A stretch of 32,000 nt of DNA from Wolbachia endosymbiont of Litomosoides sigmodontis (GCF_013365435.1 NZ_CP046577.1:1013803-1045802); one strand, 5' to 3'; numbered from the stretch's first letter, positions 3,031 to 28,766 are shown. Numbers and translations are program-made. Notes: generated from the sequence alone by a model not told the origin.

Positions 3031-3479
3031 ATTAATTATCTATCATTGTTAATAGGTCAAAATAAGTGACATTGCAGAATTGTTTAATTACGGAGTAAGG
3101 AAGAGAGGTAATAAATTTGCACAAAGCGCTCTCAAGTAAAGCAATTTTATTATTGCCTTTATTATACAAAATGTTCTGTTTTATATATAACCAAAATCTC
3201 TCAATAAGGCTGAGCTCCAGTGAGTATGGTAATAGATATATAACCTAGATATTTTTAGATACCTTTAAATTTTTCAACCTATATCAATTAACACAATCCA
3301 TGATAAGAGAGGCTTTCCATGTTTTTAAATGTTGTAACCTTTATTCAAGGAATATATTCACATAATCAGTGTTGACATTCGGTATAAATAAGCTAGGATT
3401 CTCTTCATTTTTAAGCTCAATTGTGCTGTAGAGATAAAATTTATGCCTACCTAATTTTACTTTAACTGTGTTTTAACAC
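3031..3479 (-). mobile_element. Degenerate IS630-family element, 3' (right-end) half only; forms the left arm of foldback composite A
   Basis: Reverse complement of 4135-4572. About 350 bp (3062-3410) differ from the partner arm at only 3 positions. The outer about 30 bp and inner about 60 bp are more diverged. It carries the antisense of the transposase C-terminal remnant. Confidence 0.85.
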
Positions 3480-4572
3480 CAACTCTCCTGCGTAAAAAAT
3501 GGACAAATAATAATGAAAAAGAAGCCATATTGAAGTAAGTAAAATAGCAAGATTTAAATGGCACTAGAATCAAAATTATTAGGTAAAAATCATGAAATTA
3601 GTGAAAGAAATGCTGAAGACAGTACAAAACAACGCATATGTTGCAAAAAACCAATGCTGTAATTGCAGCAAAAAAGCACAGTATAACAGCCATAGCAAAA
3701 GTATGTTGTTGTATTTTTTAAATAGCACTAACTGCATGAATAAAGCACTTAAAATTTGGAAGAGGAGAAAATTCCTTGCCTCCCCCTCTAAACGTTATAG
3801 AAAAAGCAGATTGAATCAGAGCTAATTTGAATAAGTTGAAGTATAGATACCAAAAAAACTAATATCATCACTAAAAAAATGAGAATAAGAACCCAGGAAA
3901 AATTTGCCTTAAATGTCAGTAAGTCTATAGCACATCGTAATATACAAAAAATGAAATTTTCATATATTACGCAAAACCAATTCACAATAAACAAGATAAA
4001 GATAGATAAGAAGAGCTAAAAAAACTTAATGAGATTATTGGTAAGCACCCTAAACAAGAGGTTATTCATCTTTGATAAATTGCAGTTTAGCATATATTCA
4101 AGTTGACACGGGTATTTAAAAACGGCATTAGAACATAGGTTAAAGTAAAATTAGGTAGGCAAATTTTTTTATCTCTATAGGCCAATTAAGCCTAAAAATG
4201 AAGAGAATCCCAGCTTATTTATACCGAATGTCAACACTGATTATGTGAATATATTCCTTGAATAAATGTTACAACATTTAAAAATATGGAAAGCCTCTCT
4301 TATCATGGATTGTGTTAATTGATATAGGTTGAAAAATTTAAAGGTATCTAAAAATATCTAGGTTATATATCTATTACCATACTCACTGGAGCTCAGCCTT
4401 ATTGAGAGATTTTGGTTATATATAAAACAGAACATTTTGTATAATAAAGGCAATAATAAAATTGCTTTACTTGAGAGCGCTTTGTGCAAATTTATTACCT
4501 CTCTTCCTTACTCCGTAATTAAACAATTCTGCAATGTCACTTATCTTACTCACTAACAATAAGAATTGGTAT
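3480..4572 (+). mobile_element. Degenerate full-length IS630-family element (transposase pseudogene); body plus right arm of composite A
   Basis: The sense frame reads ...LIMDCVN*YRLKNLKVSKNI*VIYLLPYSLELSLIERFWLYIKQNILYN...ALLESALCKFITSLPYSVIKQFCNVTY. This corresponds to the IS630/Tc1-mariner LIMDNA..H (second D) and LPPYSPELNPIE..W motifs. Multiple stops and frameshifts are present. The right end ...AAGAATTGG is followed by TA. Confidence 0.85.
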
Positions 4573-5335
4573 TATTTCAGTAATGCTTCTTTTCCATTAT
4601 TATCTATCCGTTCTTTATAAAGTAGAAATTGGTATAAAAACTTTAAACTAAGAAATCTCTTCCTAAGTTTAGCAGATTTCTTCTATTCGGTGCTATTTAG
4701 TAAATTTCTCAAATATTTGTATTATCTACCGTCATCCAGCTGTTTGTTAGCGTAACTTAGAGATATCGCGAATAAATCTCGGTACAATGAATTGCGTCTA
4801 ACATGTAACCAGGGAAAAAAGGTATAAATCCTAATAGTATTGAAACGGCAATGTTCGATATCATGAAAATAACTGACACTGAAAGCCTACTGTTTATCTT
4901 AAATCAATTCTGAAGAATTAAAGATTATATATGCACCAAAATCACTACTTTATCACTATAAAAGTAATTGCCACTTATATTTTTGGACTATCTTCATAAT
5001 AATTAGAGACTACTTCATTAAGTGAATGAAAAATATTTCCCCCTTCTTCAAGAAATTTGTTATATTGGTTGTGGTTACTTGATTTCATTTTTACTGGCCT
5101 ATTTTTTCTTAAGCAATTAAATAGTCATTTATAATGAACTCTATCAGCAACCACACTAAGTTTCTTGGCCATTATGCAACAAAGCCATGCCAATGTCAGT
5201 TACTCTGGTAACAATAGAAAGTTGCAGTTACCCAAGCAGCTAATACTGGGATTTAGGCTTTTTACACTGAACTCCCTATCATAAGATAAAGAGAGGCAAA
5301 GCTTACCCCATTTACTACATTTACTTATAAGTTAT

Positions 5336-6471: not shown

Positions 6472-7538
6472 TACTAATTCTCACTATACAAGAAACGGAT
6501 CTTCAATAATGGAAAGAAGCTATACTGAAACAAGTAAAATAGCTATATTTAAATAGTATCAAAATTATTAGATAAAAAATCGTGAAATCAGGAAAGAAAT
6601 GCTGAAGAAAGTATAAAATAACTCATATGTTACAAAAAAATCAAATGCTGTAATTGTAATAAAAACATAGTATAACAGCCGTATCAAGAATAGCACTAAC
6701 TGTATGAATAAAATACCTAAAATTTGGAAGAGAAAAAATTATTTTCTCTTTCCAATGCGTGAAAAAATTAGATTAAATCCAAGTTAATTTGAACAAGTTG
6801 AAGTATGGATATAAAAAAACCATAATATTATCATTAAAGAAATAAGAACTCAGAAAAAATTTGGCTTGAATATCAACAAGTCTACACTACACCGTAGTAT
6901 GCAAAAAATAAAGTTTTATATATTACGCCAAGACCAATTCACAATGAACAAGATAAAGGTAGACAGGAAAGAGTTTCAAAACAACTTAATGAAAGTATTG
7001 ATAAGTATCCTGAATAAGAGTTATTCACCTTTGATGAATTGCAGTTTGGCACATGTTCAAAAGTTGAATACTGTGATTTTAAAAAGGCATTGGAACATAG
7101 GTTAAAGTAAAATTAGCTAGACAAAATCTTTATCTCTATAATGCAGTTAATCCTAGAAATGAAGAGAGTTCTAGCTTATTTGTATCAAATGTTAATACTG
7201 ATTATATGAATACATTTCTTGAATAAATGCCGCAATATTTAAGAATACGAGAAGCCTTTCTTATCATGGACTATGCTAGTTGATCTAAGCCAAAAATTTA
7301 GAAGTATTTTAAAATATCGAGGCTATATACTTACCACTACACCTCTTAAGCTTATCCTATTGAGAGATTTTGGTTTTATATATAAAATGGAATATTTTAT
7401 GTAATAAAGTCTATATCTATAATACAATCGCCTTGCTTGAGAGCGCTTCGTGCGAATTTATCACCTCTCTTTTTCACCACGCAATTAAACAACTCTACAA
7501 TGTTACTTATTTGACTCACTAACAATCAGAATTCACTC
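6472..7538 (+). mobile_element. Degenerate full-length IS630-family element (transposase pseudogene)
   Basis: Colinear with 3480-4572, 11307-12339 and 22089-23191 at roughly 75-80% identity by eye. Left end TA|CTAATTCTCACTATACAAG. It contains the remnants ...SPLMNCSLAHVQKLN (FxDE region) and ...LIERFWFYI. The longest ORF is 79 aa. Confidence 0.85.
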
Positions 7539-7848
7539 TAACAATCAACTGATAAAATTACATCTAAGTTGTAAAATTGTGCAAGATACTTTAATTATCA
7601 TCAGAAGCAGTTGTTTCTAAAATGGGAGCAATTACTTCCTCTTAATAATTTACCATATCTAAATATGTTCTTTATGTATTTACTAATATCTAGAAATTGC
7701 ACATCAAACACAACTCTGCCATTTTTTTGCGCAAGTTATAAATACTTTCCTGGTACAAAACATCAATTCTTATATCTTCATTTGGAGGTATATATAATAG
7801 AACTTCGCTTTCTACTATCTTTCTAGTTATTCTACGTATAGTTCCCGA
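7539..7848 (-). pseudogene. RhuM-family (virulence-protein-like) gene remnant, N-terminal part only, abutting the IS right end
   Basis: Minus-strand frame: NSGTIRRITRKIVESEVLLYIPPNEDIRIDVLYQESIYNLRKKMAELCLMCNF*ILVNT*RTYLDMVNY*EEVIAPILETTASDDN*. This parallels the remembered RhuM N-terminus (..YxxEDgxIxIEVxxxxETVWLTQxQMAELFxxxxxxIxxHIKNIFxxGELxEExVxxxFxxTAxDGK). There is no start codon and there are at least 4 in-frame stops. Confidence 0.45.
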
Positions 7849-11306: not shown

Positions 11307-12339
11307 TACTAATTCCCACTATACAAGGAACATATAAACAATAATAAAAGAGAAGCCTTACTAAGTAAGGTAGCAAGATTCAAATGACATTGAAATCAAT
11401 AATTATCAAATGAAAAAACCGTAAAATCAGCAAAAGAAACACTGAAAAAAGTACAAAATAACGCATATGTTACATTCAAGAACAGCATTGACTATATGGA
11501 TAAAGCGCTAAAATTTAGAAGAGAAGAAAAGTTGTTTACTCTCTATCAAAGTTATAGAAAAACTAGATTGAATTAGAGTTAATTTAAATAAGTTGAAGCA
11601 CGAATACAAGAAAGTTATAACATCACCATTTAAAGAAATAAGAATAAAAAAATCCAGAAAAATTTTTGCTTAAATGTCAGTAAGTCCTACAATACACCAT
11701 AATATACAAAAATGAGTTTTCATGTATTATATCAAGATTAATTCACAATAAATAAGATATAAGGTAGACAGGAAGAGTTAAAAAAACTTAATGAGACTAT
11801 TGGTAGGTATCCTGAACAAGAGTTATTCATCTTTGATGAATTGCAGTTTGGTACATGTTCAAAAGTTGAGTACTGGTGATTTAAAAAAGGCGTTAAAACA
11901 CAGATTAAAGCAAAATTAGGTAGATAAAACTTTTACCTCTATAATGCAGTTAATCCTAGAAAAGAAGAGAGTTTTTAGCTTATTTGTCCTAAATGTGTGA
12001 TCAACACTGATTGTATGAATATATTTTTTGAACAAATACCACAATATTTAAGAATATTAGGAACCTTTCTTATTATGGACTGTGCTAGTTGATCTAAGTC
12101 AAAAAATTTAGAAGTATCTAAAATATCTAGGCTATATATCTACACCACACCTACCTAAGCTTAATCATATTGAGAGACTTTAATTGTATATAAACAGAAT
12201 ATTTTATGAACAAAAAGTCTATAATAGAATTGCATTACTATGAGAGCGCTTTGTGTAAATTTATCATCTCTCTTTTTCACTACTCAATTAAACAACTTTG
12301 ATAATGTTATTCATGACTCAAATAATAATGAATTAATAT
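11307..12339 (+). mobile_element. Degenerate full-length IS630-family element (transposase pseudogene)
   Basis: Left end TA|CTAATTCCCACTATACAAGG starts directly after the rppH stop codon. It is colinear with the other copies and retains ...ELFIFDELQFGTCSKVE... and ...IERL*LYINRI... remnants. There is no ORF of 60 codons or more. Confidence 0.85.
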
Positions 12340-12768
12340 CAATATCCATTCACTCAATCTAGCATACTATTTTTATAGTAAACACTATTTACAAAAAAAA
12401 CTCAAAGAAAATTAAGGATTAATTTTATTTACGTGTATGAAAATAAAAAACCTCCTTATTTTCAATTTTCCCCAAAAATGGAATATAGAGGAGTTTTTTC
12501 ATCTTTTTCCTCTAGTTGATATTCTAGTCTGTAATTCAGTTTGGCAAAATGATTAATACATACCTCCATAAATGGTAGTTTAAGCTTTTCAAAAAGCCAA
12601 AATTCCATATAATTCTAGTTATAAATTATAGATTCTAGAAAAGATACTATCACAGATTCATTAAATATGAACAATTTCCTAAAAAACGAGCAGTATTATT
12701 TTCGCATAGTGCAAAGTGTTCCCATTTAAATTCTATGTCGTCCATATAATCAACTTACTTAAAAAATT

Positions 12769-17125: not shown

Positions 17126-17171
17126 TATGAAGCTATACTTAAAGTAGCTGCTTTTTTTTATGTGTCTACTT

Positions 17172-18248
17172 ATATCAATTCTTATTGTTAATAGTCCAAA
17201 TAAGTGACATTGTAGAGTTGTTTAATTATGGAGTGAGAAAGAGAGGTAATAAATTTGCACAAAGCGCTCTCAAGCAAAGCAATTGTACTATAGACTTTAT
17301 TACGCAAAATACTCTGTTTTATATATAACCAAAAATCTCTCAATAGAATTGAGTTTTGATGAGTATGGTGATAGGTATATAATCTTGATATTTTTAGATA
17401 CCTTTAAGTTTTTTGAATTATGTAAACTAACATAATTCATGACAAAAAAGTCTTTTCGTATTCTTAAATATTACGACATCTGTTCAAGAAATATATTTAT
17501 ACAATTAGTGTTAATATTCGCAGTATAAATAAGTTAGCACTCTCTCCATTTCTAGAATTAACTGCACTGTAAAGATAAAAATTTTATCTACCTAATTTTA
17601 CTTTAGCCTATGTCCTAATACCATTTTTAAACTACCTGTGCCCAACTTTCAAATGTGTGCAACTTAGGACTTATCTAAGATGAATAACTTTTACTCAGGA
17701 TATCACTAATAGTCTCATTAAGTTTTTTATACTCTTCCTATTTGCTTTATCTTGTTCATTATAAATTGGTCTTAGTATATCATGGTTATGATATAGATTT
17801 GCTAACATTTAAGCTAAATTTCTCCTAGATTCTTATTTTTATTTCTTTAATGGCAATACTAGAATTTTCTTGCATCCATACTTCAATTCGTTTAAACTAA
17901 CTCTAATTCGATCCAGTTTTTCTACATCGTTAATGAGAAGTAAATAATTTTTCTTCTCTTCCAAAGTTTAGGTGCCTAGCTCATGTAGTCAATGCTGTTT
18001 TTGAGTGCAACATATTTTTGCCACGGCTGTTGTTATACTGTGCTTTTTGCTACAATTATAGCATTTAGTTCTTTTACAAAATATACACGTTATTTTGCAT
18101 TTTCTTCAGCGTTCCTTTTGCCAATTTCACAATTTTTTATTCAAAAATTATTGATTTCAACGTCATTTCAACCTTGCTACTTTACTACTTCAGTAAGGCT
18201 TCTTTTCTATTATTGTTCATACGTTCCTTGTATAGTGGAAATTAGTAT
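17172..18248 (-). mobile_element. Degenerate full-length IS630-family element (transposase pseudogene)
   Basis: The right-end TIR (TCAATTCTTATTGTTAATAG) is at 17175 and the left end (rc TACTAATTTCCACTATACAAGG) is at 18248. It is colinear with the other copies on the reverse strand and has no intact ORF. Confidence 0.85.
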
Positions 18249-21226: not shown

Positions 21227-21250
21227 GAATTTTCTGTATCCATTCAATAG

Positions 21251-21527
21251 TTATATCTTTTTACTATTGTAGGGCTGTTTAAGGTAAAATTACACGTTCA
21301 GTTATTAAATAAAGAACTATATAGAAATAAGAAATGAGATTAATTTGGTATAAAATGACATAAAAGTTCTACAAGCAAAATGGAACTATTTGAATAATCT
21401 AAAAAGGCTTAAAAAGCTTATGAAAAAATATTTGAGATATAACTCTTTAGTATTGCCCTGTCAAGTCAAAAACCTTGCTGCTATAAATAGCTACAGTACA
21501 TTAGCCAATTTAAAAAACCTAAACTAA
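21251..21527 (+). pseudogene. ftsL: ftsL-like cell-division gene remnant immediately downstream of rsmH
   Basis: First frame: LYLFTIVGLFKVKLHVQLLNKELYRNKK*. Shifted frame: EINLV*NDIKVLQAKWNYLNNLKRLKKLMKKYLRYNS... This matches the alphaproteobacterial FtsL signature (I.VL.AEW.YLN.P.RL..LA.K.L.L.P) and the expected dcw-cluster position. There is no start codon, at least one frameshift (about 21335) and an in-frame stop at 21351. Confidence 0.45.
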
Positions 21528-21646
21528 TGATTTAGCAACTCTCTGCTTAAATATAGAGCAGATTTTCCAGTATAACCTTGATTTTTTATACGTTTTACTT
21601 CTTTCTCTATATTTGGTTATAGGCTTAAAAACAAACGGTAATCTTA

Positions 21647-22090
21647 ATACCAATTCTTATTGTTAGCGAGTTAAACAAGTGAATTGCAGAATTGTTTAAT
21701 TGCGAAATGAGAAAGAAGATAATTAAATTTGCACAAAAAGCTCTCAAGCAAGGTAATTATATTACAAACTTTACTACGCAAAATGTTCTATTTTATACAC
21801 AACCAAAGTCTCTCAATAGAATCAAGCTTTGGCAGTATGGTGGGGTGGTATATAACCTAGATATTTTTAGGTGCCATTTAAATTTTTTGACTTATTTCAA
21901 TTAGCACAATTCACGATAAGAAAGGCATCTTACCTTCTTAAATATTGCAATATTTCTTCAAAAAATATATTCATACAATCAGTATTAACATTAGGTATAA
22001 ATAAGCTAGAATTCTCTCTATTTTTAGAATAGACTGCACTGTAGAGATAAAATTTTGTCTACTTAATTTTATTTTAGGCTGCATTCTAAT
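21647..22090 (-). mobile_element. Degenerate IS630-family element, 3' half only; forms the left arm of foldback composite D
   Basis: Reverse complement of 22750-23191. 21706-21931 is identical to rc(22906-23131). The outer end is TA|CCAATTCTTATTGTTAGCGAG. Confidence 0.85.
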
Positions 22091-23191
22091 ACCAATTCCC
22101 ATTATTACATAATGGTAGAGATAGATAATAATAGAAAAGAAACCCTATTGAAGTAAGTAAAATAGCAAAATTTAAATGGCATTAAAATTAACGAATCAAA
22201 AAAGTTGTAAAACTAGCAAAAAAATGCAGAAGAAAGCGCAAAATAACACATATATTGCAAAAAAAACAAATACTTAATTGCCGCAAAAAATTACAATATA
22301 ACAACCATAGAAAAAATATATTGTATTTTAAGAACAGCATTAATTGCATGAATAAAGTACCCAAAATTCGGAAGAGAAGAAAATTTTTTGCCTCTCTAAA
22401 CGTCATAAAAAAATCAGATTGAACCAGAGCAAATTTGAATAAGTTGAAGCACGGATACAAGAAAATCATAACATTACTATTAAAGAAATAGGAGTTAAAA
22501 ATCCAGGAAAAATTTGGTTTAAATATCAGCAAATCTACAGCATACCATAAATATGCAAAAATGAGCTTTCGTGTATTATATCAAGACCAATTCATAATGA
22601 ACAATATAAAGGTAAACAAGAACAATTTAAAAAAACTTAATGAGCTTATTGGTAAGTATCCTAAACAAGAGTTATTCATCTTTGATGAATCGCAGTTTGC
22701 ATACATTCAAAAGTTGAACATCGGTAGTTCTAAAAGGACGTCAGAATATAGGTTAAAGTAAAATTAGGTAGACAAAAATTTTTATCTTTACAATACAGTT
22801 AGTTCTAAAAACGGAGAGAGTCCCCTAGCTTATTTGCACCCAATGTAAATACTGATTATTGTATGGATATATTTCTTGAACAAATGTTGCAATATTTTAG
22901 AAGACAAGATGCCTTTCTTATCGTGAATTGTGCTAATTGAAATAAGTCAAAAAATTTAAATGGCACCTAAAAATATCTAGGTTATATACCACCCCACCAT
23001 ACTGCCAAAGCTTGATTCTATTGAGAGACTTTGGTTGTGTATAAAATAGAACATTTTGCGTAGTAAAGTTTGTAATATAATTACCTTGCTTGAGAGCTTT
23101 TTGTGCAAATTTAATTATCTTCTTTCTCATTCCACAATTAAACAATTCTACAATGTCACTTATTTTATTCATTAATAATGAGAATTAGTAT
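22089..23191 (+). mobile_element. Degenerate full-length IS630-family element (transposase pseudogene); body plus right arm of composite D
   Basis: Left end ATACCAATTCCCATTATTAC. The sense fragment (ORF 22561..22761) reads ...KQELFIFDESQFAYIQKLN, which holds the first D of the DDE triad. Downstream, ...LPKLDSIERLWLCIK matches the PELNPIE..W region. The right end ...GAGAATTAG is followed by TA. Confidence 0.85.
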
Positions 23192-23585
23192 AAATATAAT
23201 AATACAACAGAAGTTATAGATAATATTACAGAAAATAACCATAATGATATCATCCTTATAGCAAATTTTCTTGCTTTATCCTTTAATTTCTCTTCAAGGA
23301 ATTTTGAATTAATAGTTCTAGAAAAATAAGGACAGCCAAATAATGCTTAACTAATTCACTTTCTTGCTTCTTAGGTATACCTTTACCAAGTACATTAACC
23401 TTAATATATCCAAGTACTCCAAAAAAAGTTTATACACGTTATCCATCCATCTTTTAGCTTGATATCATTATCTAGATAACAAACAACTTCCATTTATCTT
23501 TAGTAAATATTCAGTCATTTTAATATAAAAATTTAAAAAAAAGCCAAGATAGCTTTAAAATATGGACTATAACATAATAAAAGCC

Positions 23586-27667: not shown

Positions 27668-28766
27668 ATACCAATTCTCATTATTGGTCAGTCAAATAAG
27701 TGACATTGCAAGTTGTTTGATTAAGAGTAAGAAAGAGAGAAATAAATTTGCATAAAGACTCTCAAGTAAAGTAATTGCATTATAGACTTTAATTATATAA
27801 AATGTTCTATCTTGTATAGAACTAAAGTCTCTTAACAGAATTAAGCTTAGGTAAATATGATAGTAGGTATATAATACTGATGTTTTCAGGTATCTTTAAA
27901 TTTTTTTGACTTATGTCAACTAGCACAATTCATGATAAGAAGGATTTCTCATATTTTTAAATATGACAACATTTGTTCAAGAAATATATTTATATAATTA
28001 ATGTTAACATTTGGCATAAATAAGCTAGAATTTTCTCCATTTTTAGGATTAAGTACACTGTATAGATAAAAACTTTATCTATCTCAGTTTACTTTAACCT
28101 GTGTTTTAATGTCCTTTCTAAATCACCTATGCTAATAATCTTTAAATGTGTATCAACCGTAATTTATCAAAGATAAATAATCTTTATTCATAGTATCTAC
28201 TAATAGTCTATTAGGTCTTTTTTTAAAACACTTCATTATTTATCTTCATCTTGCTCATTAGAATTAGGTTTGACGTAATATACGAAAATTTCATTTTTTA
28301 CGTATTACAGTATACTACAGTCTTGCTGACATCCAAGATAAACTTTTCCTGGATTATTATTCTCATTTCATTAAAGGTAATATTAGGTCTTTTTATATTC
28401 ATACTTCACTTTCTTCAAATTAACTCTAATTCAGTTTTTCTACAATATTAAGGAAAGTAAACAATTTTTTACTCTATCTAAAAATTTTAGGCACTTTATC
28501 CATGCAGTTAATGCTGTTCTTATAAAAGAAGACACATTTTTGCTAAGGCTGTTATACTACTTCTTTGCTACAATTACAGCATTTAATTTTTTTACAATAT
28601 ATGTATCATTTTACACTTTCTTCAGCATTTTTTTTGCTGATTTTACGATCTTTTTTCATTCAATAATTTTAATTTTAATACTATTTTAATTTCGCTATTC
28701 TAGCTATTTCAGTAAGGTTTCTCTTCCATATTATTTGTCTCCGTTCCTTGTATAGTTATATTAACA
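27668..28766 (-). mobile_element. Degenerate full-length IS630-family element (transposase pseudogene)
   Basis: Right-end TIR ATACCAATTCTCATTATTGG at 27668. The left-end remnant (rc ..TAATATAACTATACAAGGAACGG) is at about 28766. It is colinear with the copy at 17172-18248 and has no intact ORF. Confidence 0.8.

Follow-up and report, generated by a model that had tools for sequence, protein, structure and literature searches.

Recurrent head-to-inside composites of a decayed IS630-family insertion sequence in Wolbachia of Litomosoides

We analyze a composite of two copies of a decayed insertion sequence (IS), designated locus D, in the genome of the Wolbachia endosymbiont of Litomosoides sigmodontis (wLsig). 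The window, to which all coordinates without a prefix refer, is a stretch of 32,000 nucleotides (GCF_013365435.1, NZ_CP046577.1:1013803-1045802) with roughly 30% G+C, containing ordinary housekeeping genes together with decayed IS sequence that fills about 23% of its length. IS segments were resolved with BLAST, MAFFT and nhmmer, and an IS consensus was built from 28 near-full copies. The window holds nine IS segments at six loci, comprising four simple copies and two composites, A and D, and none of its IS copies retains an intact reading frame. Comparisons were made with the draft assembly of the sister genome, that of the Wolbachia of L. brasiliensis (wLbra), and, for synteny, with the Wolbachia of Brugia malayi (wBm) and Brugia pahangi (wBp). 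Both wLsig and wLbra are IS-rich among filarial strains (PMC8116671).

As read from its sequence, locus D consists of two old, dead IS630-family copies joined head-to-inside, constituting a long-inverted-repeat derivative of the element. Its parts are as follows.

21645-21647, no strand: TAA triplet outside the outer right-type end of the arm, candidate 3-bp target duplication
21648-21649, no strand: terminal TA, outer left, element-borne
21650-22089 (21648-22089 with the TA), minus strand: left arm, reverse complement of IS 656-1096
21683-21979, no strand: left copy of the conversion tract, 297 nt, 97% complementary to 22858-23154
22090-22091, no strand: internal TA at the junction, preceding the left terminus of the full copy
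22092-23188 (22090-23190 with the TAs), plus strand: full-length decayed copy, IS 1-1094/1096, 83% identical to the consensus
22858-23154, no strand: right copy of the conversion tract, overwritten from the arm, with a perfect run at 22906-23131
23189-23190, no strand: terminal TA, right, element-borne
23191-23193, no strand: TAA triplet after the right terminus, repeating 21645-21647 and 22087-22089

The arm corresponds to the right 441 bp of another IS copy in inverted orientation, and it adjoins the exact left terminus of the full copy at IS position 656 (..TTCTAA-TA-CCAATTCC), its inner end (..TTC-TAA) being internal sequence that resembles the CTWAG target described below. The full copy reads TA-CCAATTCC...GAGAATTAG-TA with broken reading frames, and the center of the locus is made up of the remaining part of the transposase gene (IS 1-655). 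Right-type termini lie on both outer sides (TACCAATTCTTATTG at 21648, CATTAATAATGAGAATTAGTA at 23190), so that the unit is bounded by two inverted right-type ends of presumed transposase competence. The nhmmer E-values of the arms (5e-119 and 5e-112) exclude chance resemblance. The interval of 21647-23191 assigned to the locus in the original prediction is right to within 1-3 nt. No IS remnant was detected beyond 23190 by nhmmer or local alignment; a cryptic left-end fragment past the right end of D was considered and rejected, its collinear alignment being matched by 23% of shuffles and nhmmer returning nothing. A foldback transposon of the FB type was likewise discarded, the arms being a plain inverted duplicate of IS 656-1096 without tandem subrepeats.

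The IS consensus spans 1096 bp, or 1100 bp counting the terminal TAs, with termini TACCAATT..AATTGGTA in the 1100-bp form. Its size and the short inverted repeats of its terminal sequences (TACCAATTCC.. and ..GAGAATTGGTA) fit the IS630 family (about 1-1.4 kb). The C-terminal translation of the consensus matches NCBIfam NF033545 with 157.7 bits (cut-off 100) and Pfam DDE_3 with 109 bits, and the N-terminal part matches HTH_32, HTH_33 and HTH_Tnp_Tc3_2. By these protein and size criteria, the element belongs to the IS630 family (IS630/Tc1/mariner superfamily); the duplicated TA target that is also a criterion of the family is not what this IS displays.

The second composite of the window, locus A, comprises three segments.

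3043-3476 (3478 with the CA), minus strand: arm, IS 652-1089, outer terminus scrambled
3479-4569 (4571 with the terminal TA), plus strand: full-length decayed copy
4572-4632 (4634 with the TA), minus strand: inverted left-end fragment, IS 1-61, 61 bp

The original prediction that the same composite, with the same internal junction, recurs at A and D is borne out at the base level, both junctions falling at IS position 656 (..TTTTAA-CA-CCAACTC at A, where CA is a mutated TA, and ATTCTAA-TA-CCAATTC at D). In the alignment of copies the two junctions are homologous and not offset. The further claim that the two loci have one and the same architecture stands for the junction and fails for the whole, because A has a scrambled outer arm end and an extra 61-bp left-end fragment, adjoining the right end of its full copy (nhmmer E = 2.7e-11; alignment score 77 versus a shuffle maximum of 29), of a type that is absent at D. 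The full copies of A and D are 77.9% identical.

A degenerate 23-mer derived from the IS retrieved 48 stretches from the genome collection, 47 of them from Wolbachia and 37 from wLbra, and IS DNA makes up 20-23% of the sampled sequence. The search for more composites that had been proposed yielded, in about 270 kb of wLbra, five further loci with a left end joined to position 656 (L013:7052, L030:462, L032:5281, L046:2889 and L034:72), all with different flanks, and the ortholog of A (L018:7667); the flanks of D match none of these wLbra loci. Present at no fewer than seven distinct loci over wLsig and wLbra, the junction of left end and position 656 defines a real recurrent composite.

About ten other end-to-internal junction classes occur in the sampled wLsig and wLbra sequence. 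Left ends are also joined to about IS 806 (six loci), 402, 567, 763 and about 1035, and right ends to inverted IS 56-65 (seven loci, including A; in wLbra L007:7858, L008:6854, L023:2830, L032:1241, L035:9 and L038:2955), 569 (two loci), about 255 and about 276. Sites 56, 61 and 65 of the right-end junctions lie inside TTACTTACTTCAG and may represent a single class. Among 145 IS ends sampled, 25 adjoin IS-internal sequence, and all 24 real cases are inverted; no direct-orientation product was seen among them, and every junction is exact to the base and free of filler. Simple nested insertion, which predicts both halves of the interrupted copy, was rejected since the reciprocal half was found at none of these 24 junctions.

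On the joined strand, internal site 656 reads C-TAA-C, in the manner of the element's own target. A half-site weight matrix compiled from 119 genomic flanks places sites 656 and 806 only about fourth to fifth on the plus strand, each contributing some 6% of the total target weight, yet these two sites account for 7 and 6, respectively, of some 17 left-end junctions. Sites with higher scores (567, 408 and 438) are used once or never, and site 679, located 23 bp from 656 and with a comparable but slightly lower score, is never used. Both 656 and 806 share the 9-mer TWAGAACAC, for which genomic insertion flanks show no preference, and the simplest reading of the 806 class would derive it from the 656 class through a 150-bp deletion between the 9-bp repeats. 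Two 806-class composites of wLbra carry in addition an inverted left-end fragment.

L008:6789-8000 and L038:1-209, wLbra: 806-class composite with inverted left-end fragment
L035:1-1360, wLbra: 806-class composite with inverted left-end fragment

The composites at L008 and L035 are 93-94% identical over full copy and arm and have different flanks; here a composite was copied as a unit, the pair representing a later duplication of the whole composite. In another wLbra arrangement (L030:7874-L032:1304) the order is full copy (-), arm (+) and left fragment (-), which would be the architecture of A with its center inverted by arm-arm recombination. A young IS630-type copy in the Wolbachia of Cantharis cryptica is interrupted by an IS5-family element (transposase motif KRWVVERSFAWL) at the exact TTAG of IS 656 (L031:2825-4400); the partial copy that starts at IS 656 there is not a further instance of the composite, the sequence inserted at that point being the IS5-family element.

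Every IS terminus carries TA (T at a frequency of 0.82-0.89, A at 0.91), with T-W-A-(G) next on the outer side. The IS consensus lacks TA at the internal junction sites, where a TA target would need it: the bases before 656 (IS 654-655) are CG, with TA in 2 of 40 copies, and those before 806 (IS 804-805) are TT in 46 of 46 copies. An empty site in wBp reads ACTATAGACC-TTA-GCTCACAAAATCAG (L053 at about 13007; core GACC-TTA-GCTCAC), and the corresponding occupied site in wLbra (L030:7874 to L032:1304) reads actatagacc-tta-[TACCAATTC...GGAAACCGGca]-tta-agctcacaaaatcag (core GACC-TTA-[TA..IS..cA]-TTA-aGCTCAC), where a single CTTAG has received an A-type composite with one right and one left end and its TTA has been duplicated. 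Partial empty sites for copies S and C, two of the simple copies listed below, agree, wBm homology stopping or starting at the triplet and not at TA. Comparing the left and right triplets of each of 26 copies shows direct repeats for 12 and a palindromic arrangement for 2, and among young insect-Wolbachia copies three of four have matching triplets. On these alignments and counts, the flank statistics and three empty sites, one of them full and two partial, show a target of C-TWA-G with a 3-bp duplication, the TA being borne by the element.

This result removes one argument put forward for D, namely that TA on both of its flanks is the target duplication. All IS termini have TA, the internal terminus at 22090-22091 among them, and the empty site shows TWA; because TA travels with the element, its presence on both flanks says nothing of how D arrived. 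D is flanked by TAA on both sides and has TAA at its inner junction, but its three triplets (outer left, inner and right) are uninformative, TAA being the commonest triplet, and a clean empty site is available only for an A-type composite.

Composite A has an ortholog in wLbra (L018:7236-7668), 86% identical to it and with a flank 94% identical; this ortholog displays the same scrambled outer end and the same junction mutations (CA-CCAACTC); composite A, scrambled outer arm end included, is on this comparison a component of the genome of the wLsig/wLbra ancestor. At the position of D, the wLbra rsmH-COQ9 spacer contains a remnant of about 130 bp of the outer end of the D arm (L054:11426-11538), corresponding by BLAST to IS 968-1096 with an internal 16-bp deletion and sharing three derived substitutions with the arm. 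The insertion point is the same (AATCy-TAA-TACCA, in wLbra AATCC-TAA-TACCAGTTC...), and one wLbra deletion took the rest of the D composite together with about 85 bp of its right flank (L054:11003-11837 versus window 21227-23585). Because the remnant lies at the same insertion point, at least the D arm copy predates the wLsig/wLbra split; by these alignments, age at D is established for the arm copy, and the composite as such is established in the ancestor only at A. Orthologous IS copies of wLsig and wLbra are only 81-86% identical, and all copies are ancient, dead and decayed to about 81% pairwise identity, with deletions having trimmed some of them.

The inverted arms, spaced 0.7-0.9 kb apart at A and D, had been described as uniformly 97-98% alike. 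Each instead contains a perfect tract, 3062-3320 being the reverse complement of 4286-4544 in A (259 nt) and 21706-21931 that of 22906-23131 in D (226 nt), beside which arm sequence has just 78-85% identity to its partner, the range at D being 78-82%. Since orthologous copies differ as much as they do between wLsig and wLbra, the perfect tracts must be recent gene conversion; on this evidence, the 97-98% arm identity reflects such conversion and is no sign of recent origin. The D tract has three derived bases in common with the wLbra ortholog of the arm, which indicates that the arm overwrote the full copy. The wLbra composites at L032 and L046 have no conversion tract, and the one at L013 has a terminal one only.

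The choice between a single origin with later mobilization of the whole unit and repeated regeneration of the junction by some mechanism was correctly framed at the outset. We tentatively favor over other readings, with a confidence slightly short of even, that D-type composites spread as units, and units of this kind would probably have done so on two right ends. The composite, in which the left terminus of one copy meets position 656 of another copy in inverted orientation, would have formed once or a few times, in an IS burst before the wLsig/wLbra split. It is a unit bounded by two right ends and made up of a 441-bp arm and a full copy, and it would have had a sibling form that additionally carried an inverted 61-65-bp left-end fragment, as at A. 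The IS transposase would have inserted the composite as a unit at new CTWAG sites, D-type copies using two right ends and A-type copies the two outer ends, right and left, of the interrupted copy. The IS family would later have died; in wLsig, recombination between the two inverted arms within A and within D has since erased their divergence over 226-259 nt. Unit spread is favored by the prevalence of two junction classes and by the lack of any nested insertion with both sides present: the dominance of 656 and 806 beyond their target score suggests amplified founders, and many independent nested insertions would leave some two-sided copies, of which there are none in 24. The composite occupying a single CTTAG target at L030:7874 to L032:1304 and the pair L008/L035 also count in its favor. 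In vitro, Mos1 with two right ends transposes 26-fold better than in its natural arrangement (PMC4505599). Mobilization as a unit via two right ends, as originally predicted, gains from the recurrence at seven or more loci, the one-sidedness, the site bias and the Mos1 precedent, and loses the support it had drawn from TA and from arm identity.

Several observations weigh against unit spread. Copy phylogeny is a star, in which pairwise identity averages 81%. The seven arms of the 656 class resemble one another no more than copies taken at random do (0.806 versus 0.809-0.816) and share 1 derived column versus 0.5 expected for random groups; the 806 class likewise gives no signal, except for the pair L008/L035. 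The comparison of arms with simple copies in a tree, which had been put forward as a test, consequently has no power either way and lends no positive support, and the star shape also leaves appreciable room for a regenerating hotspot. Outer flank triplets match in two of six D-type composites, no better than chance, and one of the two, the CAA/TTG triplet match at L046, is confounded by a 16-18-nt right-terminus duplication common to L023. There are singleton junction classes (IS 402, 567, 763, about 255 and about 276), and since several other classes exist, junction formation itself recurred. No clean empty site for D was found in wLbra, where the locus is deleted, or in wBp, where homology ends 43 bp before the site; for the D-type composite at L032:4838-6363, synteny of the left flank with wBp extends to CTAC-TAA, and the right flank was not found in 21 kb of wBp. 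The sample, finally, covers about 27% of wLbra (about 270 kb), in blocks picked for carrying the IS motif, and 3% of wLsig.

A regenerating hotspot, which we consider possible but clearly less probable than unit spread, would have each composite arise independently, the transposase joining an IS end to the target-like site 656 of an inverted copy. This could proceed by nested insertion with loss of the other half, or by one-ended self-integration of an excised element, in which the left 3'-OH would attack the opposite strand at 656 and the foldback product would then be filled in and integrated. The existence of about ten junction classes, all at T-W-A-G/C half-sites, fits this mechanism, as do the 20-23% of IS DNA in the sample, which make self-hits expected; one-sidedness and inverted-only orientation are intrinsic to self-integration, and autointegration is documented for Sleeping Beauty (PMC3952818). 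The nearest relative of an arm is usually its own partner (L010 0.92, L041 0.90, L032 0.85), but this similarity is equally explained by gene conversion, which is demonstrably active. A hotspot is at odds with the share of left-end junctions that fall at 656 given its target weight, with the rare or absent use of the better sites 567, 408 and 438 and of the comparable site 679, and with the lack of preference for TWAGAACAC in genomic flanks, while the nested-insertion variant requires the same half to be lost precisely at every locus. A broader proposal, which we regard as unlikely, is that an IS630-family element duplicating TWA routinely converted itself to foldback forms by one-ended self-integration, its two-right-end products being preferred substrates; that preference would explain, with the same low confidence, why composites constitute a fifth or more of the full-length Litomosoides Wolbachia copies.

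Lower still in probability is an origin in repair, whereby post-excision gap repair would have copied the sister inward from the right end and switched template in situ, at CTWA microhomology, to the flank of another copy (C-TWA-TA...), that whole copy being copied thereafter. Such repair would be one-sided by construction, and it would account both for the TA present at the junction although the consensus has CG at 654-655 and TT at 804-805, and for the CTWA/TWAG tetranucleotide that junction sites share with the universal flank. The element-borne TA, however, follows more simply from the 3-bp duplication seen at the empty site, and a 4-nt microhomology is available at many IS sites, leaving the dominance of 656 unexplained; imprecise junctions, filler and direct-orientation products are also missing from the junctions sampled. 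We hold it very unlikely that the composites are related by non-transpositional copying, that is, by segmental duplication or by ectopic recombination shuffling flanks. Synteny with wBm and wBp does break exactly at IS ends (copy S, copy C and L032:6363), and L023 and L046 have the same right flank and different left flanks, but composite similarity ends exactly at IS termini, the full copies of A and D resemble simple copies as closely as they resemble each other, and homologous exchange between copies cannot make an end-to-internal junction. Long inverted arms are prone to mis-assembly, yet an assembly artefact or chance resemblance has a negligible probability given the extreme nhmmer E-values and the occurrence of the same composite at an orthologous site in an independent assembly of another species, with 86% identity and junction mutations in common. 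Adjacent-deletion, sister-chromatid and inside-end schemes are inseparable from the explanations listed with these data.

The remaining IS segments of the window are four simple copies.

6474-7535, plus strand: simple decayed copy B, from nhmmer and consensus mapping
11309-12340, plus strand: simple decayed copy C, with an internal deletion of about IS 171-227
17174-18245, minus strand: simple decayed copy S, wLbra ortholog (L044/L054) 81-86% identical
27669-28756, minus strand: simple decayed copy E, with an ortholog in wLbra

The deletion in copy C (window 11465-11475) is missing from its complete wLbra ortholog (L054:1001-2071) and is therefore an event of the wLsig lineage. Where copy B ends on the right (window 7500-7560), wBm (L051:1230-1400) reads TGAGAACTTACTCTA and wLsig reads CAGAATTCACTCTA; the wBm sequence could be a tiny IS-end remnant, or chance. 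IS termini coincide exactly with breaks in synteny with Brugia Wolbachia at window 17126-17175 and 12338-12400 (versus wBm L051) and at L032:6363 (versus wBp L053), which suggests IS-associated rearrangements in supergroup D. At L023:6470-6486 and at L046:1797-1813, TA and then an imperfect repeat of the last 16 or so nt of the IS (CAACAGTGAGAATTGA) come after the right terminus, a terminal duplication common to two loci whose left sides differ. To the right of A, a short sequence (window 4697-4784) is repeated in wLbra (L008:1105-1188 and L045:7323-7347) and in an insect Wolbachia (L016:7515-7599), and may be a member of another small repeat family. Near-intact IS copies, 98-99% alike within a genome, occur in the Wolbachia of Cantharis cryptica and of Psylliodes chrysocephala; since the copies in the Wolbachia of Cantharis cryptica are 98-99% identical, the IS was recently active there. 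A junction-specific pattern returned one match, unrelated, in JGI metagenomes, and the IS motif returned no match in the viral contigs searched.

If the 3-bp TWA duplication is general for this Wolbachia IS group, it corrects the annotation of its copies and of their boundaries. Perfect tracts within arms about 20% diverged indicate ongoing recombination between close inverted repeats in a Wolbachia with a reduced genome that lives as an obligate mutualist, a finding that bears on supergroup D, whose genomes are rearrangement-rich. If the composites did spread on two right ends, they would parallel, as natural bacterial elements, the engineered mariner substrates with two right ends, and illustrate a route of origin for long-terminal-repeat derivatives of Tc1/IS630-type elements. 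These findings have no evident bearing on host biology, and all copies are dead. Our literature searches did not find one-sided inverted IS630 composites described, nor a TWA duplication for this group.

For Wolbachia, IS copies that are nested or degraded have been reported, including the IS630 groups ISWpi10 and ISWpi11 and 18 split copies (Cerveau et al. 2011, PMC3205602). The copies described here resemble the Wolbachia IS630 copies of that study in being mostly non-functional fossils, with one IS copy within another, and differ from its nested copies in that the interrupted copy is never found in two halves, is always inverted, and is joined at the same base at seven loci or more. The Mos1 construct with two right ends belongs to the same superfamily and is likewise a unit bounded by two right ends, but it is an engineered mini-transposon with 28-bp ends, whereas the Litomosoides composites are natural, comprise a 441-bp inverted duplication that includes the end, and are known by sequence from dead copies. 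Self-targeting offers a further parallel, since when Sleeping Beauty or piggyBac autointegrates, an excised element takes its own DNA as target (PMC3952818). Autointegration would account for one-sided, inverted junctions at target-like internal sites, but the products described are suicidal circles and not re-integrated foldbacks, so that the one-ended route considered here goes beyond them. Neighboring copies that offer alternative end pairs are familiar from the inside and outside ends of Tn10/IS10, and in the double-Ds of maize one element is inserted, inverted, into a copy of itself with both halves retained. The Litomosoides composites share with both systems the alternative pairs of ends that neighboring or nested copies provide, but they do not keep both halves of the interrupted copy as double-Ds does, and they consist of an arm and a full copy, unlike Tn10-type elements, in which two whole IS copies flank a cargo. 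In chloroplast inverted repeats and Y-chromosome palindromes, arms are homogenized by gene conversion. The close inverted arms of A and D similarly are identical over a tract while their flanking parts diverge, but they do so on a smaller scale, with tracts of 226-259 nt and a 0.7-0.9 kb spacer, and in the reduced genome of an endosymbiont.

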